Shown piece after piece: positions 2,570 through 20,532 of a DNA stretch of 21,280 bases. Under the pieces are notes generated by a model that was not told the origin of the DNA, did not search any database, and saw only the letters and a list, made by a program, of their open reading frames with translations. Position 1 is the stretch's first letter. Every line of letters starts with the position of its first letter. Source of the stretch: Macrostomum lignano. Its lineage: Eukaryota. The DNA lies in NCBI GenBank assembly GCA_002269645.1, contig NIVC01005207.1, positions 1 to 21,280 on the forward strand, read 5' to 3'. The position numbers and the translations under genes were made by a program.

Positions 2570-2890
2570 AGTAGTATATACGATACAAAATACCCAGCAA
2601 ACCATTCTCACCATTGCAAACAATTTAACCCTTTATCAGTGTGAAATGGCCTGTTTCCCTTCATTTTCGCTCGTCTTCACTTCGCTCAACTCGCTTCGCT
2701 CATCCTCGCTTCATTTCGGTCAAACAGGCCATTTCACACTTACAACGACTAATTCTTTTTGAATGGTGAGAACACGCTCTCGTCGCTCGCTTTGGTTTGC
2801 TGGGTATTTTGTATCGTCAACGCTTCCAACTCTCTCCAACACACACAAACTTTCTAGAACCCGTCGCACGCGCCGCAGGCGCGAAGGGTC
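2570..2890 (+). repeat. Left terminal inverted repeat
   Basis: Reverse complement of 19616-19935; by manual comparison 3 substitutions and 1 indel. Confidence 0.97.
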
Positions 2891-2907
2891 TTTTTCTGTT
2901 ATAAAAA

Positions 2908-3222
2908 ATGAACCGAGTTTACACCTTTTCTGTTAGTGATACTTTTGAGACTGTTGCTAAAAATGCAGAGATAATAAAACAACATATTTTGAATGGAATA
3001 ATTGATGAAGTTTATTTAAAATATGACGACAAGCACGACCTAAAACTTTATCCATTAGAGCTAGATGAGATGTATGATTTAGAACAAGAGGGTGAGTTAA
3101 TATTTCAACTTGGAGATTATTTAAATTCGGATGATTGGGAGGTTAGATCAACAGATTCCGAATCAACAAATAGTTCATATGAAACCAGTGATTCAGAGAA
3201 TGAAAGTGAAATTTTTATGTGA
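2908..3222 (+). CDS. Hypothetical acidic protein, 104 aa
   Basis: Intact ORF, TAAAAAATG start context shared with the other element genes, first gene inside the left TIR. Confidence 0.7.
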   Translation: MNRVYTFSVSDTFETVAKNAEIIKQHILNGIIDEVYLKYDDKHDLKLYPLELDEMYDLEQEGELIFQLGDYLNSDDWEVRSTDSESTNSSYETSDSENESEIFM

Positions 3223-3325
3223 AAAAAATATTTAAAAAATGAATTATTATTCTATAACAGAAACGACTTTATTATGAAAAATATATATAAAAAAATGAAG
3301 GTAAATCGAACCCATTTCGCGTGCT

Positions 3326-3514
3326 TTGCACGATTACTCCTACATCGGAAATGTGCCGATTAATGAACTTAATGAAAATTTAAGTTTGATAACAGTTGAA
3401 CAAATGTCAATAATAATATTAGTAACAATAATAGTAATAATATTGTTTTTGTTTGTTATAAAAAATTTACTACCTGTTGTCTTAAGTAACTGTTCGAACT
3501 TAGTTTGCAGATAA
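3326..3514 (+). CDS. Small single-pass membrane protein (true start uncertain)
   Basis: Hydrophobic stretch SIIILVTIIVIILFLFVI; converges on the integrase stop. Confidence 0.4.
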   Translation: MHDYSYIGNVPINELNENLSLITVEQMSIIILVTIIVIILFLFVIKNLLPVVLSNCSNLVCR

Positions 3515-4396
3515 TATCTGATTCTCATAAAAAGAACCCAATATTTCTTCACCATCCTTATCAGCAATTATATAGGTTGTAGGATTGTATTTAAAACTTT
3601 ACTGATGGTAAATTTCTCACTTATCTTCCAATATCCTTTTCTTCCTTTTTCAAACTTATCTTTCCATTTATAGATATAAACAGAATCACCAACCTTAAAA
3701 CCTTTAGTTTTCTTTTTTTCAAATCTCCAAAAGTAACCTTAACATTTTCAGGTTGTTATAAGCTTGTTGAGGAGTCATCTTTATAGCTGAATGATATGAA
3801 TTGTTATAATCTTTCACTACGTCTGGTAATATTTTTACCCATTTTTGGTTACCATTAAGACTAAACTGAAACCATAATTTCTTACCTAAAGTTCGATTAA
3901 ATCTTTCTATTAATGCGTTTTTACTCTCTCCATAAATAGAATAAATTTTATTAATATACTCCCCATTCGCGTCTTTTTTCCTTTCTTGTCCTTTTTCAAA
4001 ATGATACAATTTATACATGTGAGGATTGTAAAATTCTTTTCCTTCGTCAACACACAACCGTTCGCTTTTTTCTCCAAGCTTCTAAAAGCACAGCAACCAC
4101 CTCTCCCTTTTTGGATTTTAAAGGAACAGCCCACGCGTATCGAGTAAAACCATCTAATATGGTTAAGATATATTTATATCCTTATCGTTTGGCATCGACA
4201 TTAAATCAGCATACCAAATTTCATTCTTTTTGAAGTTCATGATTTTTCTATAAAATTTAGGTTTTCGATATTCTTTATGAAGAATCTTTGCCTCATCAGA
4301 ACTTAACCCACCGCCACTTAACAACAAACACTCAACACAATTATTTCCATGTTGATTATAATTAATTCCCAAACCAAATTTAACTTTAGACTGCAA
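3500..4396 (-). CDS. Retroviral-like (rve, DDE) integrase, frameshifted; C-terminal part of the PLA2-integrase fusion
   Basis: Motifs ILHKEYRK..IWYADL, YILTILDGFTRYAWAVPLKSK, LCVDEGKEFYN, IERFNRTL, YNNSYHSAIKMTP, FKVGDSV, TYIIADKDGEEILGSFYE; D, D, E present; several single-base frameshifts. Confidence 0.93.
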
Positions 4397-4640
4397 ATCT
4401 TTTTAACCATCCACCTAGTTAATCTTTGCCCTACCGATAATCCCTGCAAGTTATCTAATCCTTGAATCATTTTTTGATCGGCTTCATGTTTTAATCTTAA
4501 TGCTTCCTCGGGTGTGTTCTTATCAGCATCTCTGTATGCTAAGTCATGATAGTATGCTAACCAATCAATTCCATTTATGGAATTGAATCGGCTTTTGGAG
4601 TGTCATCAGGATTTAATCTCAAATCTAAGCGAGTGCCGGG
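4370..4640 (-). CDS. Exon 2 of PLA2-like (parvovirus VP1-type, PLA2X) domain
   Basis: PGTRLDLRL..INGIDWLAYYHDLAY..KHEADQKM..KILQSKVKFGLG with HD dyad and downstream D; two 1-nt deletions; runs into the integrase frame without a stop. Confidence 0.85.
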
Positions 4641-4973
4641 TAGTTTACCCTCAATCTTTCGAATGAGGCTGGAGCACACCTTAAGCGGCGATAATTACCG
4701 CCCATCTCCGTCTGCTCTCTGAACCTTCTCCTTATATTTAAAATACTTAGGAGCTTGGCTGCGCATTGCCACCGTGTCTTCAAGCTTTTTACCATCGAAC
4801 CATAGGTTCGCGGACGAAGTCCGATTGGGAAGAGGAGTTACCTCTGTTCCTTCAAAAGATTTCTCAATTGAAGTGGTACTTGAAGCTGTATGACGGGTTT
4901 CACGCAATTTGGAGACATCGCCACAAATAGTGACTAGCAAGGACATTGCCTTCCTCACTCAGGCCACGGGTTA
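4641..4973 (-). ncRNA. Group I self-splicing intron, IC1-like, 333 nt, no internal HEG
   Basis: P AAAUUGCGUGAA (4910-4899), Q AAUGCGCAGC (4767-4758), R GUUCAGAGAGCAGA (4724-4711), S AAGGUGUGCUCC (4682-4671); P7 GAGCA/UGCUC; P3 UGUCUCC/GGAGAUG; P1 CAGGU/GCCUG with U.G at the splice site; P5b and P9 GAAA tetraloops; removal restores NFTG|PGT. Confidence 0.92.
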
Positions 4974-5098
4974 ACCTGTGAAGTTCATTGATGGTAGGTG
5001 TAGTTCCCCTGTATATTTACCAGTAGTAAAGATTGGTGGTAAGCTTGTTAATCCTTTTTGTAAGTCTAAAAACCTCCTTCAAATACTATTTGGGTCAT
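4974..5098 (-). CDS. Exon 1 of PLA2-integrase gene (MTQIVFEGGF/LDLQKGLTSLPPIFTTGKYTGELHLPSMNFTG)
   Basis: TAAAAATG start; ELHLPSMNFTG matches the ELHLP..N(Y/F)xGPGT pattern of Polinton PLA2 domains; one T missing in a T-run. Confidence 0.8.
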
Positions 5099-5648
5099 TT
5101 TTAATAGCCTTAAAAATACATGAAAGCACCAATTGTTTTGCAAATTCTTCAATGGTTGGTTGCTTAACTTTTTTATAGTTATTATCTACGCTAGTTAAGT
5201 ATCTTTTATTTCTCCAATTTTCAGACTTTTTAATCTGATCATCGTCTTTGTAACTAAATGAAGAAGCGGGAATGAAATGATCAATATCTAACTTTCCAGT
5301 ATAATTTTTTGGAACATAATAATTTCTTGTGAAATTTAACCAATCAAAAAAGAATTCTTTTGTGCAACCAAGATAGGAGATATAATGTTTGTCATGAAAA
5401 GTTCTCAATGCCCAAGTTATTTTAGCTCTAATTAGACTAATATTTTTGAAATTTTCATCAGTGCGATATTTATTTTTTGCATATTTATTACATTTATCTT
5501 TATTGTTTATTCTCCACATAGTACATTTAACTTTCTCACAAGATCGACAAAGATTTTTAAATTTTTTTGTGTCATTTCTCCAACAAAAAAATTCTTTAGT
5601 CATCGGTTTCTCAATTTTACACGTAGTACAAATTTTTGTTTCATCCAT
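5079..5648 (-). CDS. Free-standing HNH endonuclease with N-terminal CxxC-CxxC zinc ribbon (giant-virus type), 189 aa
   Basis: CTTC..CRSC, YLGCTKE, LDIDHFIPASSF..NWRNKRYL..DNNYKK; intact ORF. Confidence 0.82.
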   Translation of the reverse strand: MDETKICTTCKIEKPMTKEFFCWRNDTKKFKNLCRSCEKVKCTMWRINNKDKCNKYAKNKYRTDENFKNISLIRAKITWALRTFHDKHYISYLGCTKEFFFDWLNFTRNYYVPKNYTGKLDIDHFIPASSFSYKDDDQIKKSENWRNKRYLTSVDNNYKKVKQPTIEEFAKQLVLSCIFKAIKNDPNSI

Positions 5649-5675
5649 TTTATAAAAAATAAATTTAACAATTAA

Positions 5676-6356
5676 TTAAACACCAGTATGTCCAGCAGCT
5701 TTCGCGCAGCTAAAACAAGTTTTCGCGGAGTTTTAAATCCTTCACCAACAGCCGGTTTGTTATTTATAGAATTAACAATCCTTTATACAAGCTGGTATTT
5801 TTAACAGCTCCTACTCCTAACTCATCATAAAAAATTCTAGCACTTACTAATTCATCCTAGTATAAAATCAGGGTTAAACTTTACCCTAGGGTTAGTAATA
5901 ATTCTATATGCTCCGCCCAATTCTCTATATAGTTCATTTCGATTTTATCAACGTTACCAATTCGATAATTATTACCTAAATCTGTCGCAGCAATACTACG
6001 TGGCGCATCTCTTGGAAATTGTTTAACTTCTTCACCCCTTTCTGCAGCCCTAATCTCTGCACGTCTAATCTCTGCAATTCTCAATTGAGCTTGATCAACA
6101 TCATAAGCAGGCGGCTCATCCAAAATTTCATCCTCTTTTGGCTCAGTATTTTTAGCAATTTTTTCCAGAAGGTCTTTATCTGTTTTTTCTAGTTCACTAA
6201 TTTTCCCGTAATAGGATTAACAAAAGGAGCAGCAAATCTTTCACCAGCTAATTGTATTCCTAACTTTCTTTTTTGTAAATTTCTAACAAAATCAGAATAT
6301 CTTTGCTTCTCTTTATAAATCGCTAACTCTCCATCAACGTCCATAAATTGACTCAT
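5676..6356 (-). CDS. Uncharacterised Polinton protein, frameshifted
   Basis: TAAAAAATG at 6356; joined fragments including ORF 5881-6123; ends LVLAARK/AAGHTGV, resembling the L-x-x-x-x-AGNT motif I recall from Polinton accessory proteins. Confidence 0.55.
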
Positions 6357-6389
6357 TTTTTAACATAAAAAACTTTTTTAACTTAAAAA

Positions 6390-7859
6390 ATGGCTGAAAC
6401 AAAAACTATGTGGAGTGATAAATTTCATTTCAAAAAGCACCGACAGTATATTAATGAGGTCAGAGCAAGAGATTTAAATTATACCCTACCAACAAGTGAT
6501 AATTCAAATAACTTTACTACTGGAACGGTAACTTTTGACATCGGCGCAACCAACACTATATTGGATATGAAAAATGCATTTTTCCGTGTTAGATGGTTGT
6601 ATACTAGAAATGATGGAACTGCTCTTGCAGCCGGAGATATCGCAGATCGATCCGGAATAATAATAGAAAATGATTGGTTTTATAAATGTTTTTCCCAAGC
6701 TCAACTAACTGTTAATGGTGCTGAGGTTGAGACATCATCAAACCCCGCAGAGATTAATGGAGTTTTGAAACATTTAAATTATACTTATTTATCAAAACAA
6801 GTTGGTGATAATGTTGGGTGGATGCCGGATAAAGGTAACGGTCAAGCAGTAGTTTTCCCTAATGTACAAAACGCAGCTGGTGCAGATACTGCAGCGCTAA
6901 TTGTTTACCTTAATACAAACATAGTTCCAGTTGTAACCACTATGACTAATACAAAAGATATTAATACTGGTTTTATAGATCGTCAGAATAAATTCCCAGT
7001 CGCGGTTTTAACCACAGCAACAGCATATGAGCAGACTTTTCAATCTTCCACTATTTGGGTTCTTCTCACCAAATCGGGTATGGAAAGGATTAAAATTTGG
7101 GATACAGTTGCAAATATCTGGTGGATATCAGCCTAGGATACTTTATGGAACCTCAATTTCAACCGATATAGCAGTTCGTATAGATTCAATTCAATTAGTC
7201 GTACCAACTATTGAGGTAACAGCCCCACTTTTAAAACACATCGATAATCAGTTAACGCATGATCAGGAAATATTTTATTTGAATCGTCGACATTTTATGC
7301 GAACCATTAATAACAATCAGGATTCATTCCAGTGGCAAATACTGACATCAAAACGTCGGGTGAGATATATTTTTGTTTGGTTTAAGATAACAAATAGAAG
7401 GAGTAAAAGAGCAAATGGGGATTTATATTGGCTTCAATCCGGTGCCATAGCAGAACAAGCAGCCACCGCAACAGACAATGCGGCTGCAGCTATTAACGAG
7501 TTTAATGTTCAGAATATCCGCCTGCAGGTTGATGATCAATATTATCCGGTTAAAGATCCTCTTAATCTAAATATTGCAAATAATGATGTTAATGATTTTA
7601 TAAAATATTATCAAGATTATGCCAAAAATGAAGCATATGCCGTCCCTCAGTACACACCACAGAGTTTCTAAACATTCATCCAGTGGTTGTTTATGATCTA
7701 ACGGCACAGAAAGAAAACGTAGCCAATATTGGACTTAATTATATGTTAGAGATTAATAAAACCGGTAATCAGGCACTTGACGCCCACGTATTGTTTCTAG
7801 AGGAATATATGTCAATTGCTAAAGCTGATGGCACGATTGTTCGGGACGCACCATTGTAA
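6390..7859 (+). CDS. Major capsid protein (double jelly-roll), 2 frameshifts
   Basis: ORFs 6390-7136 and 7027-7671 plus tail LNIHPVVVYDLTAQK..DAPL*; motifs FSQAQLTVNGAEVE, NLPLFGFF, IRLQVDDQYYP; position next to ATPase and penton. Confidence 0.85.
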
Positions 7860-7910
7860 AATGAGTGCAGGTCTCCGACCGTCGCGCCTATTTAAATTAT
7901 TTCTTTAAAA

Positions 7911-8672
7911 ATGGTAAAGGCAAAACACGATAAGATATTTCCAAATGATCCTTTTCTTTGTTTAGTAATCGGAGGATCAGGTAAAGGAAAAACACACTTT
8001 GTTTACGATTTATTAACAACAGATGGAATGTTAGACTATAATAATTTAATAATTTATACTAATAAACCTAGAATAAAATATTATGAATTTCTTAAACATG
8101 GATTAAAAAACAAATTAAAAAAAGATGTCTTGTTTAGAATGTTAAGAGCATATGAGCAATATGAGGATGATGACGAACCGCGATTTACACTCGATGACAT
8201 TGAGGATTTATGTAAAACAATGGCACAACAGCCAGAAAACATCACCGAACGAGCCCCAACTGTTAGAGTATCAACCCGATTAGCCTATGATCAAATTCCA
8301 AAACATGATAAAACACTAATTATTTTTGATGATTGTATTAATGACGGTGATCAAGAATTGCAAAAGGAAATTTTTGTTAGTGGTAGAGGAGATGGAATTG
8401 GAGCTTTTTATCTAACACAGTCCTTTAGAGAATTAGAATCGATTATAAAAAAGAATGCTAGCTGTTGTGTAATGTTTGATTTAGATAACTATGATCTACA
8501 AAATATTCACGCTAGATTTAATCCCGGGTTGGATGCAAAACCATTTAAAAGTATGTGTAAAAAAATTTGGGATGATAGCCAATACAAACATATTTATATC
8601 AATCCGAGGTTAGAAAGGAAAAATCGAATCTTAAAAGATCTTATAAAAGAAGACGATGAGGAAGAAGAATAA
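7911..8672 (+). CDS. A32/FtsK-like DNA packaging ATPase, 253 aa
   Basis: Walker A GGSGKGKT, Walker B LIIFDD, SGR..YLTQS; intact. Confidence 0.93.
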   Translation: MVKAKHDKIFPNDPFLCLVIGGSGKGKTHFVYDLLTTDGMLDYNNLIIYTNKPRIKYYEFLKHGLKNKLKKDVLFRMLRAYEQYEDDDEPRFTLDDIEDLCKTMAQQPENITERAPTVRVSTRLAYDQIPKHDKTLIIFDDCINDGDQELQKEIFVSGRGDGIGAFYLTQSFRELESIIKKNASCCVMFDLDNYDLQNIHARFNPGLDAKPFKSMCKKIWDDSQYKHIYINPRLERKNRILKDLIKEDDEEEE

Positions 8673-8686
8673 TTCCCACTATAAAA

Positions 8687-9471
8687 ATGGCTACAAATTT
8701 AGATACTATAAAACAATTGGTAGATCGAACTAATTCAAAATTTAGTACAACATTACAGTTTATAATGACAACCAGCGAGCAACGGATTCAATTGCGCGAT
8801 CCATTACAACTTGATCAAAGCCTAAGTTATCAAATTGGTTTGATATTATTTTCGGTTTTTAACATGCCTCAATTAATTAATGCAACAAATAATCAATTTA
8901 GATATTCTAAAGATTCCGGAGCCAATTGGACAACATTTAGCGTTAACCCAGGAGCGTATAGCTATACTGATTTGAATGCTTATATAGAAGGAGAATTAAC
9001 ATCTAACGGCGATTGGGTAGCAGGCGCGATTGTTATAGGGGTTGATTTACCATCTGGCAGATTCACACTATCACTAGGATCCGGATATCAGGTTGATTTC
9101 ACAATTGCAAATTCACTCAGAACCATACTTGGATTTAATTCCCGAATAGTTACCACATCAAGCACCGGAGATACAGTGGGAAATATTGAGGGTGGAGTTA
9201 ATACAATTAATATAACAACCGACATATCAAACGGTGGTTATATAACAGATAATAATGGAGTTTTGGTTCAACGTGGAATTATTTATTCAATCCCATTTCT
9301 TGCTGTTCCAATTGGAGAGAAAATGATTGTTCACCTCAAACCCCAATATATTACCCATTAAATCAATATAATGTTCAATCAATTTATATTAGGATTGTAG
9401 ATGAAAGCGATAGATTAATAAGTTTTGGTGGGCAGTCAATAACAATAATTTTACGTATAAAACAGGTTTAG
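8687..9471 (+). CDS. Minor capsid protein (penton, single jelly-roll), 1 frameshift
   Basis: INATNNQFRY, PGAYSYTDLN, SLRTILGF, INITTDI; shifted tail YIRIVDESDRLISFGGQSITIILRIKQV*. Confidence 0.85.
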
Positions 9472-9472
9472 C

Positions 9473-9500
9473 CGAACCAAAGGTTCGAGGACTTTGTCCG
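9473..9500. repeat. 28-bp double mini-hairpin CGAACC-AAA-GGTTCG-A-GGAC-TTT-GTCC-G
   Basis: Two perfect stems with triloops; second copy at 4796-4823 differs only in loops and linker. Confidence 0.85.
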
Positions 9501-9515
9501 TTTCCTATAGTAAAA

Positions 9516-9695
9516 ATGGGTAATAATAATAATAATTTACTAAAAAAACAATCAGAAAAAGTTAAAAAAGCTGAAGATAATTACGAACTAGAACTAGCAA
9601 AATTAAGGCAGTTACAAGCTGATAAAATAAGAAAGGAATTGTTAAAACCCACACCTACGAAACTAACTAAAACCAAGAGTTTTTCAGGAACATAA
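9516..9695 (+). CDS. Small basic protein, 59 aa (MGNNNNNLLKKQ..SFSGT), not in the ORF track
   Basis: TAAAAATG start, open frame filling the gap between penton and protease. Confidence 0.6.
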   Translation: MGNNNNNLLKKQSEKVKKAEDNYELELAKLRQLQADKIRKELLKPTPTKLTKTKSFSGT

Positions 9696-9696
9696 A

Positions 9697-10109
9697 ATGA
9701 CCATGACGTGGGATGATTTTAAACAAAGATATGGAACAGACACAACAAGCAATATCGAATTAACAAATTGGGCGCGGCAGTTAAAAATAAAACCATTTAG
9801 ATGTGTTATGCGAGATGAGATAAAAGACTTACCAAATATGGATGTTTCATTGTTAATATTGAAACAACAAAAGAAAATGGTGTTCATTGGTCAGCAGTTT
9901 ATTCAAAACTAAAACTTGTTTATTTTTTTGATTCATACGCGCTTCCTCCGTTACAGGAAATAAAAGACAAATTTAATCATACTAAAAATCGTTTATGTGG
10001 AGATCATCACGAACAGTTTCAAACCTTTGATAAAAGTTATTGCGGGCAAGCGGCGTTGTATTTTTTATATCGACTTTCGAATGAAGCTCGTGTAAACCCA
10101 AGTATTTAA
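9697..10109 (+). CDS. Adenain/Ulp1-like cysteine maturation protease, 1 frameshift
   Basis: TSNIEL, GVHWSAV (His), YFFDSY (Asp), QTFDKSYCGQ (Gln, Cys); may extend to 10133. Confidence 0.9.
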
Positions 10110-10143
10110 GATATTTTAGACTCTATAAAATAGACAGTAAAAA

Positions 10144-12184
10144 ATGTTATTTTCTGGAACACCCTCATGGAACGGAACATCAAGTACTGGTGGTGGTACT
10201 TCTGGTGGAATAAGTGTTACATTCGGAGATAACCGATATATTAATGAAGATGAAGGTTATAAAAAAAGTGAAGTTGATACTAAACTAAATTTAAAAAGAA
10301 ATGTTGCAGATTCCTATACCAAAACTCAAATAGATAATTCCCTAAATTTAAAACGGAACGTAGCCGATTCATATACAAAAACAGAGGTTGACAATGGGTT
10401 AAATTTAAAAAGAGATATAACTGATTCTTATTCTCGAACTCAAATAGATGATTCATTAAATTTAAAACGCAATACGGCCGATTCTTATACCAAAACTGAA
10501 GTTGATAATTCCCTAAATTTAAAAAGAGATATAACTGATTCCTATACCAAAACTGAAGTTGATAATTCCCTAAATTTAAAAAGAGATATAACTGATTCCT
10601 ATACCAAAACTGAAGTTGATAATTCCCTAAATTTAAAAAGAGATATAACTGATTCTTATAGCAAAACTGAAGTTGATAATTCCTTAAATTTAAAAAGAGA
10701 TATAACTGATTCCTATACCAAAACGGAGGTTGATAATTTAGTTGGAGGTGGAGCCTTAAAGCAGGATCGATTCCAAACGGTTGAAACTGGTCACATACCT
10801 ACCATGGCAGATTGGAGTGGAAATGGTTTTGCAATAACCGCAAGCACTGCATTTAATACAACTGATTTTGCAAGTTGGAAAGCGTTTGATGGTAATGATT
10901 CAACAGATTGGGCAACAAATAATACTCAAACCGATTATTGGATTCAAGTCCAATGCCCTTCCGCAATAATGTGTTATAAAATTGATTTACGTGGTAGGCC
11001 ATCACCTTCAACCGAGCACCCAGCATCATGGCGATTTGAGGGAAGTAATGACAATACAAGTTGGGACGTATTAATACCTGCGGATAGTTCTGTAGCAATA
11101 AATAACTCAACTCAAACAATTAATGTCACACAAAATTTTGATAAAACATATTCATATTTCAGATTGTTCTGTCTTACATCAACCTCGGGTTCAACCAACC
11201 CGGGTCTGTCAACCTTCCAGATTTATAGACAGACGTTTACAATTCTTGATTTAAATTTGGGAGTGGTTAATCAATCAATTGATATGGGAGGTAATACAAT
11301 TACTAATATCTCTACTATAAACAATAACAGTTCTGTTGTTACTAAAGGTTATGTTGATACGCGAGTAACACAAACGGCGGATGGCCGAATGTCTTTTAAC
11401 GATAAAATAAAATTGGATGGAATACCTGCAATCGATGCCGCTTTGTACGAGCCTGTAATTTGCAATTGGACTGGATATCAAAACCCAACCACAGCCGGTG
11501 ATATTTTTCCAACTGGAAGTTTTGTTGGAGATGCTTATATATTGATTATCAAAATGGAGCTAGAATTACTGATGAAGCAAGTGGTCAGTCTGGAGCGTTG
11601 CAATTTAATTTCACCCATTTTCGTAATATCTCCGCCTCCTTCTATTTCCGAGTTGCTAATGCTACAGGAGATGGTGCTGATGCGGTTTGGTTTTATGCAT
11701 ATTGTCACGAACGTCCAACAAGTGAATTTGGATCCGGGTTAACAACCCGCGCCGGCTTGATTGTGTTTGCGAGTGAATGGCGATAGAGTTGGGGTTGTTT
11801 GGAGTAATATAAAATCAGACGGTGCAACAGTTCGTAATGATGTTCTTAATGACGCAGATCAAACTATAACTATGCAATATTGATAACGGCGATTGGCATC
11901 TTTTTGAAATTAATATTTTAAATCAAAGAGTTTGGTATCAAATAAGCACATACAATGTATCAGCTAATACATATACGCTAATTGGGCAAAACTTTTTTAC
12001 ATATGATAGTGGAACTTGGGGAGATTTAGATAAAACGGGAACTCTTATGGGTTTTGGTGCTCGAACTGGAGGAGCAGATGCCGCACATTTTATTCGTGGT
12101 GCAGCCGTTTGTGGTAGCACATCAGCAGGATATGATTTTGCTGCGACCGCATATTTGGAACGGCCACAAACCGAAATAACTTAA
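10144..12184 (+). CDS. Fibre/receptor-binding protein: 19-aa repeat shaft, F5/8C (discoidin)-like domain, L-type lectin-like domain; about 3 frameshifts
   Basis: YTKTEVDNSLNLKRDITDS repeats; WKAFDGND..WIQVQC..WRFEGSNDNTSW; IDMGGNTITNI..VVTKGYVD; QSGA..SFYFRV..GADAVWF, DNGDWH, MGFGARTGGADAAHFI. Confidence 0.75.
10258..10737 (+). repeat. Coding 57-bp tandem repeat, about 8.5 copies
   Basis: Eight LNLKR units in frame. Confidence 0.95.
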
Positions 12185-12228
12185 ATCAGCTAATGCTGCG
12201 ATATATAACATAAATATTTATATATAAA

Positions 12229-12554
12229 ATGGCTTTTAGTAGAACCCATCGATGCGGCAAAATAATGTTATTATTCCTATTCCTAAACAAGAATCAAATA
12301 TAAAAACATTCAAATCTCATACCAAATTTTTATTTAGTACTGTAAATGTTCAGGATAATAAGAAGCTTCAAGAATTAATTAAGTTATTAAAAAATCATAT
12401 TATACTTCAAGAGTTTTGGAAAATAGGATTTAAATGGGAGAAAAAAGAAAGAATCACTCCAATACAATACCTATTGAGCTCGGGACAAATACCCAAAGAG
12501 CGTGGGGAAATCATTTTGGTGCTATTAAAAATAGACGAGAATGTCGGTATCTGA
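12229..12554 (+). CDS. Hypothetical protein, about 100 aa
   Basis: ORF 12252-12554; probable true start TATAAAATG at 12229 via one frameshift. Confidence 0.5.
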
Positions 12555-13105
12555 AGCAGATAAATGGGAACGCGACCGGTTCAACCAACGTAAAGGTCAG
12601 ATGTTAAGTAATGTTGATCGTATTAACTATGATTATGATTTATATACTAAAAAAGTAAGAAGAGTTTCAAACCATATAAGAAATATGGATTTTTTCAATA
12701 TTGGATTTGGAAGCTTATCAATGTTATGTGTAATCGTTTTAGGTATTTTACAATCTATTCCAACTCTTAATTTATCTCAATTATTTTTAGGTATTTCAAT
12801 TGGCTCAATATCAGGTTTTGAATGATCAGAAACTTATCAATACTTTTAGCAATTAAATTATATCTTAAAAAACGAAAGGAAAAATATAAATCATTAAGAG
12901 ATGTTGCAAAACAATATAAAAACAGTTATATTTATATGTGCAAAAAATATTGGATGATGGAGAGATAACGATTCATGAATTATCAACCGCGGTTGAATTA
13001 TATGAAAAATATTTAAAAGATAGAAATAGAATTTTAGATGTTGAAACTTTTACCGATATGGAATTAAGGAATTGCGTTTGGACAAACCCAAAGCTCCTCC
13101 GATAG
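12541..13105 (+). CDS. Conserved Polinton two-helix membrane protein (resembles the family called GasderminX in adintoviruses), 1 frameshift
   Basis: Hydrophobic hairpin followed by basic stretch and KKILDDGEITIHE..YEKY; possible shifted extension to 13161. Confidence 0.55.
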
Positions 13106-13153
13106 AAACTATAGAATACAAACCGAAACTATGCTATGGGACAAAGCCCGAGG

Positions 13154-13666
13154 TCAGGTAGTGCGGTAGAACTTAATGTTGTTTAATTTTTCTAATGCAT
13201 ATGTTATATATTCTTCCCAAAGTGGTAACTCTCTTCTGATCCTAGGTTTAAATTTTTTATCAATACATAAAAATTCCAATGACTTTTTCAGTAACATTTC
13301 GTTAGGTATGTTACCTATCCTTATAAACTTTGTATTCTCTCGAATAAGAAAATTAAAATAATATCCAACTAAAATTAAAATCCTTTCGGAGTCTTTCGAA
13401 CTTAATCCCTTTCCTTTATTTAAATGGAAAAAGTTATTATATAAATAAACATTATTTCCGGGAATTAAAATTGGATGAGAAATGTCCATTGTAAGATTTC
13501 TTAAAATTGTATTTTTAAAATAGTAATATGAGTTTTCAATCTTTTTTGTTTTTTCAAATTGATATATTTTAGAACATGAATAGCACATATGATATATATC
13601 TCCGTTTGCTGTTTGAGCTCTGTGCATAGTCACGTTACATTTATTACATTCGTAAATGTCTTTCAT
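13154..13666 (-). CDS. Zinc-ribbon protein, candidate VLTF3-like late transcription factor, 170 aa
   Basis: CNKC..CYSC N-terminus; C-terminus LLKKSLEFL..LWEEYI..KFYRTT* loosely recalls VLTF3 endings. Intact ORF; function tentative. Confidence 0.45.
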   Translation of the reverse strand: MKDIYECNKCNVTMHRAQTANGDIYHMCYSCSKIYQFEKTKKIENSYYYFKNTILRNLTMDISHPILIPGNNVYLYNNFFHLNKGKGLSSKDSERILILVGYYFNFLIRENTKFIRIGNIPNEMLLKKSLEFLCIDKKFKPRIRRELPLWEEYITYALEKLNNIKFYRTT

Positions 13667-13693
13667 TTTTTTTGTTATTTTTTTAGATTAAAA

Positions 13694-14026
13694 ATGGAGA
13701 GCTGGTTCAAAACCGATTCTAATGTGATTAATTATCTCACACCCAATATGTTGGAGAATAAAGAATATAATATTATATGTTTGAGACAGGTTAAATTTAT
13801 TGGGCTTCAATCAATATTTTTACAATTAGATGGGCAAAAAATTTTATGTCTAAGCGGAGATGATGTTAAAAATTTTCCTGTTTTAGTTATTAATAAACCA
13901 AAAGCGTTTGTTATGAAATACAGTCTGGAGAGTGGGTTGCAATTTAAACTAAAACAACCAAAAAATAAAAAGAGTGACAGGACTGTAAAATTGGCTTCGG
14001 TTTGGGAGGATGACGACGAAGACTAA
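13694..14026 (+). CDS. Hypothetical protein, 110 aa, acidic C-terminal tail
   Basis: TAAAAATG at 13694 (within track ORF 13589-14026); ends WEDDDED. Confidence 0.65.
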   Translation: MESWFKTDSNVINYLTPNMLENKEYNIICLRQVKFIGLQSIFLQLDGQKILCLSGDDVKNFPVLVINKPKAFVMKYSLESGLQFKLKQPKNKKSDRTVKLASVWEDDDED

Positions 14027-14112
14027 ATTTTTTTATAAGAAAATGGAGACAATAAAAATCCTTATCACTAAAGAGCGCGAACTTAATGATATTAATAAAA
14101 AATTTAAATAAA

Positions 14113-14259
14113 ATGTTTTATAGTGTTTATGGGGACGATATGTTTCCCATCCGATATGAGATAGATAAAAGAAAACGTTTTATTAAATCTGCAATTGTTT
14201 ATGCTGAAACAGTAATTGAAATTGAAATAGATAGGTTGGTTAGACGAATAAAAACTTAG
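14113..14259 (+). CDS. Small hypothetical ORF, 48 aa
   Basis: TAAAATG start, open frame; may join a short upstream ORF at 14043. Confidence 0.3.
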   Translation: MFYSVYGDDMFPIRYEIDKRKRFIKSAIVYAETVIEIEIDRLVRRIKT

Positions 14260-14362
14260 GAAAAAAGTAAAGAATGTTTAAGTTACCCCCGACTGTGAGG
14301 ACAATTGGTGCTCAATAAAATATGAAATTGAAATGGATATTATGCTTAAACAATTACATGCT

Positions 14363-17300
14363 TTAGTTTTTTTCAAGTGCTAATTCATCAATATCGAACT
14401 CAAAACAATTATAGTCAACGTCAAATAGTAAACTGTTATAATATTCAATTGAATGTTCATGCTGTGGTTTGTCATCAAAATAGTTTTTAAAGAATGGTTT
14501 CATAACTCCGTTTTTATCCGGTTTTTCTCTTTTAAATGTGTTTATCGTAGAGGTATATGTTTTTGATATTGTTGATCCGCTTTGAGGAATTGTTATACCA
14601 CCTTCAAATGATCGTTTCCACGGAGCATTATTATTTACTTTTATTGACTGTCCATCATATAAAGTTTTAAACGATGCAAAATTAATCTTATCGTTTGCAC
14701 ATCCTTTAAATGTTTTTTTCTCTTCCATAATAAAATCGTCTTTCAATAAAAGACAATATTTAATTTTAGGAGCGATAAAATATCCGAATATAATTCCACC
14801 CTCTCCATAATCATTTTTTCCTTGACTTATTATTTCCAACGTGCCCGTTTTTATTTAATGTGTCCCAATGTTTTTTATGTATATATAACGAATCTGTATC
14901 GCCGTAATAAATTTCTGGAGTCTTTGAGCCCTCTATAGAGGTAATAAAATTATTCATGATCCTTCTTGAATGAGCTAAGATAAATATTCCTAATTGTGCT
15001 GGACAAAGGCTTGTTATAGGACTTTCCTCTTCCTCATCTACATATTCTTGCGTGTCTTTATTTTTTTCAACATAATATAAATCGTCACATATTTTCTCAT
15101 ATGATTTGATTGTGTCATCGTATTCGGTTTTTAATGTTTGCAAATTCCAGAGATGTGTTGTGAAAGTAATGTCTCTTTGAACTGTTTTGCCATATAATGA
15201 ATTTAATAGTGTTTTTACCAATTCAGAACCTGCCTCGTTATTTTCTTTTTTAAATACTTTTCTCATTTCAAAAAGATTTGTAATATAATTCTGAAACGGA
15301 GAGAAATCGTAATTTTTTTCATATACAATTCCACTATATATCTTTAATATTTTTCCACCCATTCTTACAATTTCTTGTATATCTACGGAACATAAGGTGT
15401 CAATTACTTTTCCGTTTCTAAACCTATTTAATGTTTTTGTTTCGTTTGCTTTTGTTTCCGGATTATAAAATTTCTCTTTATCTTTCGATGGGAGATGTTG
15501 AAGAAAAACGGTGTTAGGATTCTCATACATAATCTTTAAAACCGCTGTTTTTGGTCGAAAGGTTTGTGAATTAAATTGTGCCAAGAAATCTTTTTCCTCG
15601 CTTATATCAAAAACTCTTGCTGTTTCTGCTCTTGGATATTCACTATCCTTATCAGACATGGCAGATGGGTACAACGAAACTCCATCAAAATTCATTAAAC
15701 AATCTGATACGGTACCCAATTGGTTTTTTAGTTTAATTGCGATTTTCTTTTTTTCTTCCATATCGCTTTTGAGATAAGTTGATATAACCTCGCATGGGTC
15801 GCTTGTTGGTATTTTTAAATGGTCTTTTACAACGTCTACATTGTTTGAAAACAGTCGCTTTCATATTTATTTATTAGTGCAAATACTCTACCTCCTTTGA
15901 CTGCGTCCCGCATAAACCTTCTTATATAAGGATTGGTATGAGAGTGAACTGAAAATTCTTTTCTTAATAGTGTTTGGTATTTTGCTTTTTCAAGTTTGCT
16001 TAAGTCAAAATAATCCTCTATTTTCAACGGAGATATTATTTCTTCAACTTTTTTAATGTAATTAGTTTTTTCTTCTGTCTTTAGATATTGTTTCATTTTG
16101 TCTTCAACTCTAACAAAATCTTTAAACCAACATTTTAATGTTAAACTTGAACAGGTAAGAGTATCGAACATTGTCATTCCTCCAATTTCATATGCTATTT
16201 CATTATACTTATGAATACAGGCGCATAAAGAAATAAGATCAAATTGTAAATATTCATACCATTCGTCCATGCGCTCTAGATAGTCGTGTCGTAATGTCGT
16301 GAACCATTGAGGTCTTTCGCAAATCCTCTCTAATTGTCATTGATGAGCAAAACTTTTTTAAACTCATTGAAGCGTGTTGATATGAACAAAGCATCGTAAT
16401 GGTTTGTTTCGAATCCTTATGATTCTTCTTCTTATCTTTGTTTATAAATGCACTAACCTCTTTTGACGCGTAATCGTTTACAAAAGTTATTGATAATATT
16501 CCTCTTGGGGTTTTGAGAATTTTAATTGGTTTTATATTACAAAATAGTGGTATGTATGAATCGAAGCGGGATGAGTTATGCGCGATCAAAACAATCTTTT
16601 TTGACCTAACTGTACCAAGGTATTTAAACATTTTTCTAACACAGTCCATTTTATCTCCATCTGTTTGAAAATCACAACCGCGATCTGATATCAAGATCTT
16701 AGTTAGTTTCTTTATTGTCTCTGGGGTTTCATTACACTTATTAGAAAAGTCGTTATAGTTTAAAAGACCAACCGCATACGGACATGCTTGTTGATTATAA
16801 TTTAAATATGTTTCAAAATCAAATATATATACGTTTGATTTATTGGGATTTGTGGGTGTGTTGAACATTTTTAGCTCCTTAACATTTTCGAGCGTTGGGT
16901 TTTTATATACAACTTTATAATTGTCTTTTATCCGTTCGAGGGCGATTCCTCGTTGTTTATTTGATATAAGACAATAATGCCAATGTGGTAATCGGGTGTG
17001 TGAAATAATTTATTAATAACCAATCGTGGTGAATCCCTCTTTGAGACTTTGGTTCAATGCCACGATTTTTGGTGTTGTACAGCCCTATACTAAGATTAAA
17101 ATGTTCGTTGAATCTTCCAATTCTTGAATTTGTCATTAAACCTCTTTGGTTCTTGAGTCGTACAACCAAGCACCATATTCGTCTTTGGTGGGGCTTTATC
17201 ACCATAAATAAACTGAACACACTTATAGAAACAATTTCCATCACTAGGTATGTAACAGTACTCATCTTTATACTCTGCAATTTCACACATGACATTTGTT

Positions 17301-17943
17301 CCCATACCCTGCTTTGACCTTTCGTGTTTAAGTGTAATTTCGTTTGGTGTCATTTTAAGTCTTCCAGAAAACACACTTAAATTCATGTCGTAATTTTCTA
17401 CCAAATGCTTAAACCAAGCTTGAAATTGACTTATATTATAAAATGTTGCTAAGTATTGATTAATCTCTTCACGATCATCTCCGGTTTTATTATAAAAATA
17501 TTGTACCCTCGCATTAGTAATTTCAACAGCATATCCGTTTGAAAGCTGGGTTTCAATAAAATCTAGACATTCTGCATTGGTTCAAATCGATAAACCCTAA
17601 TAAACTCATCTAATGGTTTTTCATCCGATTTATTCCGAGGTTTCCGACGTGTGGGTTTCTTTTGGTTTTTTTCTAATTCTGCTATTCTTTTTTCATATTC
17701 AGCCTTTTCTATTAATCGCTTCATTTCATATTCTGCCCTTATATTATTTGCTAATGCATTTATTTGTTGGTCTTGTATTTCTCTTTCTCTCTGCCTTTCT
17801 CTCTGTCTTTCTCTTGCTCTTTGGCGGCGTTGTTGTCTTTGGCGCTGTTCAATTTGTTCAATCTGTCTTTGTAATCGATTGAACTGTTGGCGCTCATTTG
17901 CAAGAAGTTGTCGAATCTGATCTGGGGTCAATCTTTGTTCCAT
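14363..17943 (-). CDS. polB: Protein-primed family B DNA polymerase with long N-terminal region; multiple frameshifts
   Basis: Exo YIFDFETY, IAHNSSRFDSY, YLQFDLISL; VKGGRV; NFDGVSLYPSAM; KTLLNSLYGK; YYGDTDSLY; FIAPKIKYC in correct order. Confidence 0.96.
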
Positions 17944-18027
17944 TTTATAGAATATAATTTATATAATGTTTGAATTATTGATTTTTTAATTTTGCGTTTT
18001 TGGTGTCCAGACCCTACCCCCAGGAGC

Positions 18028-18771
18028 CTATTCGAGATCTGCTTTTGGTAATAGCAATCCATTGCCCATAACGTTTGAATTTAAGAAAATTCCTGAACCT
18101 GCTTTTGGTCTCATTTCGAGATATAATCCGCTTCCATCATGTTTTCAATGATGTTAAAATCTTTTCCTAATTTAGTAAAAATCTTCTGAACTGCTGGTCT
18201 AAAATTGGATCCAATATTGTCAAAAAATCCTTTAGCTTTCTCACCCGTTTTTTCTAAAGTTTGACCAAATTCATGTAGTTTATCTGCGACAACTCCACTT
18301 CCTTGGGTTGTTCCTTGTAAAAGTAAACCATTGCCATGATTTGATCCTTTTAGTATTAACCCTTTTCCAGCTGATAACCTAGCTTCTGCATTTCTTTTTT
18401 GCTCAGCTGTTGCTGAACTACTATTAATTGTATCGATAAGTTTTTGTTTAAATTGTGCGTCCTGCGTTATTTGCTGTCTTTGAAATTCTGCATCTCGCTT
18501 TTTCGGCTTTTTCGTCCGCTGCTTTTTTGTCATTTACTGCTTTTGCAATTCCGCTCAGCAACTCCTCCAGCTGCTCCAATTCCTGCAAAAATTATTGGGA
18601 GCAAAGCTGCAAGGGGTAAGATTCCCCCCTGTTTCGCTCTTAACTCTCCTAGCTGTTTTACATTATCATGAATTCTTTTTCCGGCTAAACCGACTGCTCC
18701 AGCTGCGCCAAGCCTAAAAGAAGCGGTAGAATGGGTAGTAATCCACCGTCCTTTTTAGTGTGAGTCTCCAT
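18028..18771 (-). CDS. Core/membrane-lytic precursor protein with GG and GxG putative protease sites, frameshifted
   Basis: KKDGG|LLPILPLLL.., KQGG|ILPLAALLPIIFAGIGAAGGVA..GIAKAVNDKKAA, then GKGLIL, GNGLLL, GSG repeats typical of Polinton core proteins. Confidence 0.7.
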
Positions 18772-18779
18772 TAAAAATT

Positions 18780-19016
18780 TCACATCGAGTCTGTCAACCT
18801 ATAATTTCTGCCGCGATTCTTAAAGGATATTGGCCTTCCTTCTTGTGCATATTTTGCTGCGAGTTTAAATGTATCGATGTCGTAGTCAAACTTTTTACCT
18901 AATCGATCCAATCTTTTTAACATTGTGTGGGTTTGCTTATTATCATCAAGATCTAAAGTATCTACAATTTCTCCTATAAAATATAACCGGTTTTCATCAT
19001 CATTAACTGAGCCCAT
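18780..19016 (-). CDS. Hypothetical protein, 78 aa
   Basis: TATAAAAATG start, intact, co-oriented and tightly packed with neighbours. Confidence 0.6.
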   Translation of the reverse strand: MGSVNDDENRLYFIGEIVDTLDLDDNKQTHTMLKRLDRLGKKFDYDIDTFKLAAKYAQEGRPISFKNRGRNYRLTDSM

Positions 19017-19100
19017 TTTTATATTGTTAAAATTTCTTTAATCCTTTTCCACCTTTAATAGTATTTAACATTTTATTAAAATCCTGAATATCTTTATTAC

Positions 19101-19435
19101 TTATTGGTGCGCTTTTCGTGGGGTTTCTGTTGGTTGTGCGGCTTGGGTTGCTTCCTGTGCTAATTTCAAATCTTTTATTGCTTTTATCTGTGAGAGGGTA
19201 TCGTTAAATTCTCTCAATTTCTTTAGTTCTTCTGCCGCTCTAGCTGCTTCAATTCCTCCTTTTACAGCATTTGTTATAGAACCTGCTGCGGAGCCAGCTT
19301 GCCCTATAAGCCCCATATTGTCTTTAACAAAATTTGCTGCTGTTCCAACCACATCAAAAAGCCCTCACCTCGGTATTCAACTGGGTCTCCTACCTGCAAT
19401 TCATTCAGATTTTGCATATGTGTAACGTGTGTCAT
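19101..19435 (-). CDS. Putative core protein (GEG|FFDVVG amphipathic helix), 1 frameshift
   Basis: ATG at 19435, MTHVTHMQNLNELQVGDPVEYRGEGF joins ORF 19101-19352. Confidence 0.6.
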
Positions 19436-19473
19436 TTTTTGTTCTATTTTTAGTAACAGAAAAAGATTGTCTG

Positions 19474-19570
19474 CATTCCATTTAGACCAGATTTTAGACC
19501 AAATTTTGAAAACGAAAACCAAAACGATAGTCTAGTTTTGTTTGGTCTAAAATCTGGTCTAAATGGAATG
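19474..19570. repeat. Perfect 30-bp inverted repeat with 37-bp spacer
   Basis: CATTCCATTTAGACCAGATTTTAGACCAAA (19474-19503) versus 19541-19570. Confidence 0.93.
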
Positions 19571-19615
19571 TTGGGTGGGTAGGTGAACTGACTATAAATA
19601 GCTTCTATTCTTTCC

Positions 19616-19935
19616 GACCCTTAGCGCTGCGGCGCGTGCGACGGGTTCTAGAAAGTTTGTGTGTGTTGGAGAGAGTTGGAAGCGTTGACGATACAAAATA
19701 CCCAGCAAACCAAAGCGAACGACGAGAGCGTGTTCTCACCATTCAAAAAGAATTAATCGTTGTAAGTGTGAAATGGCCTGTTTGACCGAAATGAAGCGAG
19801 GATGAGCGAAGCGAGTTGAGCGAAGTGAAGACGAGCGAAAATGAAGGGAAACAGGCCATTTCACACTGATAAAGGGTTAAATTGTTTGCAATGGTGAGAA
19901 TGGTTTGCTGGGTATTTTGTATCGTATATACTACT
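19616..19935 (-). repeat. Right terminal inverted repeat
   Basis: Ends ATCGTATATACTACT; reverse complement of 2570-2890. Confidence 0.97.
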
Positions 19936-19945
19936 AGTACTGTAA

Positions 19946-20209
19946 CTGGACTGCAGCTCTCTCAATCTGCGGCTTCCTCTCCTAGACCTAGTGGACAGCT
20001 GCAGCTCTCTAGTCTCAGTTCAACTTCAGTTGACTGCCAATGTTGCTCAGTCACTCAGTTCCTTCATGTTTTTGGACTGCGGCTCTCTCAATGTTAGCTC
20101 TAGTGTGGGCTGCAGCTCTCCCTCAGTTCCTTCAGTGTGGACTGCAGCTCTCCCTCAGTTACTTCAGTGTGGACTGCAGCTCTCCCTCAGTTACTTCAGT
20201 GTGGACTGC
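19946..20209. repeat. Same 32-bp host minisatellite, right flank
   Basis: Degenerate units next to the element, near-consensus units at about 20105-20209. Confidence 0.85.
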
Positions 20210-20227
20210 TTCGTGCCACAATTTCAG

Positions 20228-20532
20228 AACTTCGTGCCGGACTACAGCAAGCAGACAGCAGTCATCAACAGCAGCAGCAGCAGCACCGACAGCATCTGTC
20301 AGCGATGCTCCAGGAGGTGTTGAGCCGACTCGACGCCGGTGCTGAGCAGCTGGCATCGGCCAGGCCCGAGCACCGAGCCCTGCTGCTGGCGTCTCTCGTC
20401 GCCGAACCGGATTCCACGGCCTCCTCAGCCGCCACCGTCGCTGCTCCGACAGAAGTCGCCGCCGCTGCCGCCGGCTGTCATCAGGAGGACGAAGATGACG
20501 CAGTCAGAGTGCCTGTTCTGTTTGGACTTTAG
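20228..20532 (+). CDS. Probable terminal exon of a host gene (ELRAGLQQADSSHQQQQQQ..PVLFGL*)
   Basis: GC-rich open frame, ATTTCAG acceptor ending 20227, phase 1; no family recognised. Confidence 0.5.

Follow-up and report, generated by a model that had tools for sequence, protein, structure and literature searches.

Positions 1 to 21,280 of contig NIVC01005207.1 of the flatworm Macrostomum lignano (assembly GCA_002269645.1), hereafter the window, contain a Polinton in which one protein gene is interrupted, and a reading made from the sequence alone had taken the interrupting stretch for a group I intron carried by the element into a nuclear genome. The questions raised by this locus are whether the insertion is such an intron, whether the DNA around it belongs to an animal nucleus, and by which means such an intron could be removed from the RNA and spread among the element copies. 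The answer that we consider probable is that a mobile intron of group I resides in the gene for PLA2-integrase of flatworm nuclear Polintons; it would be spliced, copies ending in A included, and would home by means of a nuclease.

A group I intron at a single site of a PLA2-integrase gene

The host gene of the intron, missed by the sequence-only reading, is a PLA2-integrase fusion: a natural intron-less allele reads as an ORF of 452 aa in which both PF08398 (parvovirus-type PLA2) and PF00665 (rve) are found over their cut-offs. A protein search for this fusion returned only three close relatives, and none was confirmed among viral contigs. The intron splits the gene between a Gly and a Pro codon, and the 333 nt at 4641-4973 (minus strand) that had been read as an insertion between ...MNFTG and PGTRL... 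are indeed one, whose exact ends are set by the intron-less alleles. As proposed with that reading, intron-bearing and intron-less Polinton copies were surveyed; both forms were found, and the 24 intron-less alleles fix the intron site and reveal the intron as a precise insertion in an otherwise open gene. The first pattern for the unbroken motif gave 23 matches, all of them PLA2 frames, and could not match family A (see below); a second pattern, which covered this family, gave six matches, of which one is a PLA2 frame of family A (L106) and five are an unrelated repeat. A third PLA2-integrase family (L061, L064, L067, L070) was seen only without intron.

In the genome as a whole (764 Mb, 5269 contigs), 212 candidate intron places were found, of which 40 were scored, and exact 3'-end patterns bring the number of intron copies to 116 or more, distributed over two Polinton families (87 in family A, which includes the window, and 29 in family B); these counts include redundant haplotypes, host genes also occurring two to four times. 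The gene and its intron are arranged in the window as follows:

4974..5098, minus strand: exon 1 of PLA2-integrase (42 codons in other copies, frameshift near 5067 here), ending in GGT, the U of which pairs with the guide G
4641..4973, minus strand: group I intron of 333 nt, family A, nuclease-less, last base A at 4641 (RF00028, intron-less alleles, helix table)
4703..4917, minus strand: P3 (4917-4911 with 4709-4703) and P4 (4906-4901 with 4765-4760) (helix table, covariation)
4672..4717, minus strand: P7 (4717-4713 with 4676-4672); relative to family B, the G-binding pair is retained and both bases of three pairs next to it are altered (helix table, covariation)
3500..4640, minus strand: exon 2, with the remaining PLA2 domain and the rve integrase (382 codons in other copies; lower end approximate; PF08398 and PF00665 on the intron-less allele)

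In the window copy, both exons are interrupted by frameshifts (near 5067, near 4578 and at several more places further down), which the earlier reading had also missed and which reflect either decay or assembly error; exon 2 is open in 18 of the 30 closest copies, and in one more with a slightly longer frame. Exon 1 ends in GGT in all 58 parsed intron copies and in GGC in all 24 intron-less alleles. The U required for the U.G pair is therefore fixed wherever the intron is present, and the idea that the intron-less alleles are retro-copied spliced cDNA was rejected, since they carry GGC and not GGT. In family A, the first codon of the intron is a stop, so that no fusion protein can be made from unspliced RNA, and introns of this kind conceal PLA2-integrase genes from ORF-based annotation.

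The assignment to group I, already made from the letters alone, is borne out both by the RF00028 covariance model and by the compensatory changes described below. The Infernal scan against Rfam that had been suggested (cmscan, whole window) gave a match to the full RF00028 model at 4650-4983 on the minus strand, with 59.7 bits for a gathering score of 50 (E 4.3e-13); the other nine of the ten matches in the window are miRNA models, far under their cut-offs. Two close copies, L010 and L012, are absent from the RF00028 list at the cut-off. The helices named from sequence, namely P1 (which has U.G at the 5' splice site), P3, P4 (UGCGUG/UGCGCA) and P7 (GAGCA/UGCUC), are all present in the helix table, with P3 complete (7 of 7 pairs) and with P9.0 in addition, and the P2, P2.1, GAAA-capped P5b-type hairpin, P8 and P9 proposed at the same time are seen in the minimum free energy fold, whose z is -2.44 (one of 100 shuffles was equally good). 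The U.G pair of P1 at the 5' splice site is found in 58 of 58 parsed copies, and the G-binding G-C pair of P7 with its bulged base in 56 of 58, the window among them; L056, with an unparsable 5' end, was excluded from the helix and slot tables. By inspection, the P, Q, R and S sequences, P2, P2.1 and a P5abc with GAAA loop would fit the IC1 type, several of these features being shared by IE introns.

The P3/P4/P7 core comprises 19 pairs, which are paired at 98.1% across 11 distinct homologues (five of family A, five of family B, and L088), with four unpaired cells out of 209; pairing falls to 38-56% when the partners are slid. Two-sided changes are found at 7 of the 19 pairs, and covariation amounts to 0.39, to be compared with at most 0.11 for slid partners and with 0.18 in shuffles (0 of 500 as high, a control that is inflated by the relatedness of the sequences). 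Most of these two-sided changes are single events separating the two families, between which both bases of three adjacent P7 pairs are exchanged, the G-binding pair remaining the same. The latter is the equivalent of Tetrahymena G264-C311 in the numbering found in the available text of PMC10020454. Family A has a G at the equivalent of A306, together with a flipped 266-309 pair; as these three bases are described in the same text as one triple in Tetrahymena, their joint change may represent a three-way compensation. Besides, 8 of 23 copies of family A show two double changes in a peripheral hairpin, and in four G-ending copies P9.0 is mismatched. It had been noticed from sequence that P4 and P7 deviate from consensus and nevertheless pair, as expected from selection, and the compensatory changes in the P3/P4/P7 core agree with this view.

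In the light of this covariation, which needs selection on the ribozyme fold, it seems exceedingly improbable that the host spliceosome removes the insertion and that the ribozyme is a relic. A GT does lie two bases ahead of the 5' site and could serve as a donor; by inspection, however, its use with the nearest AG would lead to a stop or to a shifted frame.

Polintons integrated in flatworm nuclear DNA

The Polinton context proposed from sequence is confirmed by the protein-primed DNA polymerase B, the rve integrase, the packaging ATPase and terminal inverted repeats of 316 nt (98% identical). The window holds one such element, at 2570-19935, set in satellite DNA, with the following features:

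2570..2878, no strand: left terminal inverted repeat, with AGTAGT end
6390..7671, plus strand: probable major capsid gene in two frames, inferred from position and size
7911..8672, plus strand: A32-type packaging ATPase (PF04665 over cut-off)
14363..17386, minus strand: protein-primed DNA polymerase B, broken by frameshifts into several pieces (two of which match PF03175 over cut-off)
19627..19935, no strand: right terminal inverted repeat

The candidate capsid, penton and maturation protease genes have no match in Pfam or NCBIfam. As minor observations, the flanks of the element (2308-2570 and 19935-20241) consist of a 32-bp satellite, each terminal repeat contains nested hairpins, and a perfect 30-bp inverted repeat lies at 19474-19570. 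An ORF at 10144-11742 is fibre-like, with 19-aa repeats and an F5/8 type C (discoidin) domain, and a weak OTU-like peptidase match (PF10275, E 0.003) is seen at 17099-17386 (minus strand), at the start of the polymerase region.

Regarding the host, which the sequence-only reading had proposed to identify from the flanks, 17 element ends were found in the genome. Both ends are visible on two contigs, and a 6-bp target duplication is present at both; one of the two, C2140, carries the intron. No target duplication was found for the element of the window. Among the 86 exon matches to Wnt (PF00110), some lie on three intron-bearing contigs (C952, C67 and C506). On C952, three Wnt exons begin 24 kb from an intron copy, and one of them shares 99% identity with a UniRef entry that bears the label Macrostomum lignano, all further matches being at most 50% identical. 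Troponin, a bilaterian marker, was also found in the genome. The multi-exon Wnt on intron contigs, troponin and the target duplications together place the elements in animal, that is flatworm, nuclear DNA. Searches for mir-124 and mir-2, run to rank the host, gave no match and are uninformative, and a COX1 search for the mitochondrial code gave a single weak, broken match.

These data bear on the view that the element comes from a protist, fungal or algal contaminant or symbiont rather than from the animal. The window contig consists of nothing other than the element and its satellite flanks, look-alike introns occur in giant-virus genes, and such introns are known from Polinton-like viruses of protists, as reported in part of PMC12220804. 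Nevertheless, the 116 or more copies of the intron are spread over a similar number of contigs, several of which reach hundreds of kb, three intron-bearing contigs carry the multi-exon Wnt, and target duplications are seen. In addition, at least half of the region's words are present in 20 runs of the 24 listed, from seven studies of one organism, one of which may be the source. A contaminant origin is thereby already largely refuted and can be regarded as scarcely credible.

The terminal A, selection and probable splicing

The last base of the intron, at 4641, is an A and not a G, which had escaped the sequence-only reading. To our knowledge, a terminal G is near-universal in group I introns, with published exceptions. 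The 3' end is placed at 4641 on account of P9.0 and of the G-ending sister copies, and homology with these sisters is the reason why the A-ending intron is classed as a group I variant. In family A, 67 of the 87 copies, including that of the window, end in A and 20 in G, and all 29 copies of family B end in G. The G-binding pair is the same in A-ending and G-ending copies, so that no compensating change is visible.

One alternative would be that A-ending introns are spliced at an in-frame G located 9 or 15 nt before position 333, the calcium loop of the PLA2 thereby gaining three or five residues. Two such Gs are available, and the Rfam alignment stops at the one 9 nt upstream; yet the model also ends 9 nt early in the G-ending family B, both Gs lie in the P9 stem, and P9.0 assigns the terminal position to the A. 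Moreover, an insert in the conserved G-P-G-T loop would probably be harmful to the PLA2. The use of an upstream site therefore appears very improbable.

Exon 1 and the part of the PLA2 in exon 2 ahead of the first ATG of that exon (codons 1-60) serve only once the RNA has been spliced, and pN/pS in these parts therefore counts for splicing. In 15 A-ending copies with full exon 2, this ratio is 0.14 in exon 1 (6 distinct sequences), 0.07 in exon 2 codons 1-60 (8 distinct) and 0.13 in the integrase; the pairs of L012, L016, L027 and L029, which had shortened frames (frame-shifted in L012, L016 and L029), were kept out. Selection on this gene also indicates that the Polintons were recently active. 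A-ending copies occur on several exon haplotypes, including the most divergent one, L027 (dS about 0.7), and are scattered over an exon tree that is mosaic and partly unresolved. Because the copies are mosaic, recombination with G-ending copies weakens the selection argument, and the purifying signal may partly have arisen on G-ending backgrounds. In 15 copies with the 333-nt intron and full exon 2, the intron distance is 1.6%, compared with 12% at synonymous exon sites, a small divergence that fits recent homing as well as selection.

In this context, the most serious alternative is that only G-ending introns splice, the A-ending ones of family A being dead, and that the PLA2-integrase is supplied in trans or from an internal ATG of exon 2, with the dead intron still homing. 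The terminal G is gone with the G-binding pair unchanged, exon 2 offers an ATG after about 60 codons, haplotypes are mosaic, and possible helpers abound, namely the G-ending copies (20 of 87 in family A, 29 of 29 in family B) and the 24 intron-less alleles; all 11 copies with a free-standing Eco47II-like gene, moreover, end in A. Against it stand the purifying selection on exon 1 and on the first 60 codons of exon 2 in A-ending copies, the retention of the A on haplotypes as divergent as that of L027, and the existence of a precedent: the hexacoral intron ND5-717, which like that of the window is without terminal G, ligates its exons exactly, if inefficiently, as reported in the available part of PMC6545197. 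On balance, splicing-dead A-ending introns seem unlikely. Given splicing in the family as such, it appears fairly probable that the A-ending form is spliced exactly.

We infer that the Polinton intron is spliced. According to this preferred reading, the PLA2-integrase gene would be transcribed and the RNA would fold, a free guanosine bound at P7 would attack the U.G site, and the exons would be joined into a single PLA2-integrase frame. Family A, its A-ending majority included, would splice well enough, if perhaps slowly or with proteins assisting, to keep the fusion protein under selection. None of the public runs listed for the region is recorded as RNA. In contigs of four of the 24 runs (X1, X5, X17 and X20, whose RNA status is a guess), no joint was seen over 4200-5700; as rare forms drop out, this is no evidence either way.

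Nucleases, proposed homing and related introns

Family B introns are 836-895 nt long and contain an ORF of about 250 aa, which begins in P2, fills the P2.1 loop and runs across the ribozyme core. This ORF matches RE_Eco47II (PF09553 over cut-off), and restriction enzymes were also matched in Atlas. Its AlphaFold model has a pLDDT of 80-97 over residues 1-180, and the best PDB fold is EcoO109I (E 3.5e-5, TM 0.44, a modest value in a range of 0.44-0.48). All 27 parsed family B introns carry the Eco47II-like nuclease inside and none upstream. In family A, the corresponding place is a slot before exon 1, occupied among the 30 closest loci by an Eco47II-like gene in 11 (65-67% identical) and by an HNH-like one in 19, the window being among the latter:

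5079..5648, minus strand: free-standing HNH-like endonuclease ORF of 189 aa, overlapping the start of exon 1 (PHROG endonuclease VII E 0.001, HNH E 0.003)
4695..4946, minus strand: remnant frame of 83 aa, comprising the start and the ribozyme-overlapping tail of the family B Eco47II-like ORF, nuclease domain lost

For the HNH-like ORF, Atlas gave leads only. The slot genes, be they HNH-like or Eco47II-like, share their first and last codons (window 5079-5648, L001-L030), and the HNH-like ones differ markedly from one another in their N-termini (55-100% identity). An Eco47II-like gene in the slot goes together with an A-ending intron in all 11 cases. At 4793-4822 (minus strand), the window has a 30-nt, two-hairpin insert in the P5abc region, which members of either family may have or lack (333- and 303-nt forms) and which is always in frame with the old ORF.

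Eco47II recognizes GGNCC and EcoO109I RGGNCCY. The insertion site is GGN|CC, and the intron thus splits exactly a site of the Eco47II/EcoO109I type; this coincidence is a lead as to the specificity of the intron ORF, a putative homing nuclease. The intron would spread by homing or gene conversion among co-resident element copies, in family B through the Eco47II/EcoO109I-like nuclease within it, and in family A through collaborative homing with the free-standing Eco47II-like or HNH-like gene directly upstream. The window intron would then be a derivative whose internal nuclease was lost once a free-standing one served. A bolder proposal, which we put forward tentatively and with doubt slightly prevailing, is that a group I ribozyme acts on a protein-coding mRNA in a bilaterian nucleus, that its A-ending majority ligates exactly, that the intron homes via a nuclease derived from GGNCC-cutting enzymes and switching between intron-borne and free-standing states, and that Polintons are its working habitat. 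If true, all stages of the homing cycle would stand side by side in one genome, which is that of a laboratory animal.

Outside the flatworm, ten metagenomic homologues of the family B ORF, most with the ribozyme-derived tail, and 328 wider relatives were found. In L088, an unrelated metagenome contig, a PLA2-integrase gene is interrupted at this site by the same intron with its ORF. The nuclease could be aligned to one locus each in viral and metagenome contigs, and the phage records searched gave just four short weak matches. In IMG/VR, a pattern search gave 13 matches (L089-L101), of which L091, L093, L096 and L100 are not introns by inspection and three loci passed RF00028; the look-alike introns are located in genes of giant viruses for RNA polymerase, capsid protein and ubiquitin. 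They share P5abc-region sequence with the flatworm intron (76-88% over 50-70 nt) and differ from it in their host genes, none being in a PLA2-integrase gene, and in their nucleases, GIY-YIG- or HNH-like by inspection. Judging from these likenesses, giant-virus introns would probably be the source pool of the flatworm intron.

Among published systems, the closest are the Polinton-like viruses of Rhodomonas lacustris (cluster C3), Paulinella micropora and Desmodesmus armatus (PMC12220804, 2025, available text), integrated elements of the Polinton type that likewise carry RF00028 introns (309-376 bp) within a protein gene. In that text, these introns are restricted to a few protist groups and occupy a short gene located upstream of that for the capsid, no nuclease being identified, whereas the flatworm intron has a bilaterian host, a PLA2-integrase gene, an Eco47II-like nuclease and a terminal A. 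According to the accessible part of PMC3679873, nuclear group I introns are confined to microbial eukaryotes, and there to rRNA genes; the present one would share with them an IC1-like core and, in some copies, has like them a nuclease ORF in a peripheral loop, and it differs by its protein gene and its animal chromosomes. As for animals, the 2025 database, in the sections available of PMC11835236, lists group I introns from placozoans, corals and sponges only, mostly mitochondrial IB4, and the available text of PMC2198948 and PMC7194472 agrees with this range; as described in these three sources, the known animal introns are mitochondrial and non-bilaterian, with LAGLIDADG genes. With regard to the nuclease, I-Ssp6803I and I-Bth0305I (PD-(D/E)XK) are likewise restriction-fold enzymes carried by group I introns, although from other nuclease families than the Eco47II-like one, Eco47II itself being listed solely as a bacterial type II restriction enzyme in the part available of PMC3424549. 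Collaborative homing in phages, cited in the accessible text of PMC11296320, resembles family A by its nuclease-less intron beside a free-standing nuclease gene; the present case, known from sequence, differs in that a single animal genome contains one nuclease family in two settings, intron-borne and free-standing. Finally, the PLA2X of Adintoviruses and Polintons is also a parvovirus-type PLA2 in animal Polintons; in the flatworm, the PLA2 is fused to the integrase, and the available text of PMC8502044 mentions no group I intron.

The open-access literature searched (Creative Commons articles in PMC, and bioRxiv full text) yielded no group I intron from the nuclear genome or from a Polinton of an animal, nor one that carries an Eco47II-like ORF. 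The parts available of PMC10748475, PMC11296320, PMC8502044, PMC3424549 and 10.64898/2026.10.13.758929 touch on HNH domains, on collaborative homing, on PLA2X or on Eco47II, and no such intron appears there. The novelty suspected from sequence consequently does not extend to a Polinton intron as such, given the protist viruses of PMC12220804, and stands, within that literature, for the animal nuclear host. The new features are that the host is a bilaterian animal, that a nuclease accompanies the intron and that the last base is an A. The presence of many copies of a group I intron under selection in a protein gene of flatworm chromosomes breaks the rule of rDNA and non-bilaterian mitochondria given in the available text of PMC3679873 and PMC11835236, and Polintons come into view as vectors bringing ribozymes and homing nucleases into animal germ lines. 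Splicing of an unengineered mRNA by a group I intron in an animal nucleus now becomes testable, and so do the completion of step 2 by a natural A-ending ribozyme and the turning of a restriction-enzyme family into homing nucleases.

Two further observations concern giant-virus contigs. At L087:6010-7300, a distant Eco47II-like gene adjoins a probable C5 DNA methyltransferase, like a restriction-modification pair, which is a possible origin of the intron nuclease. L098 has several group I introns in a capsid gene region, two of them over the Rfam cut-off, together with an HNH-like ORF.
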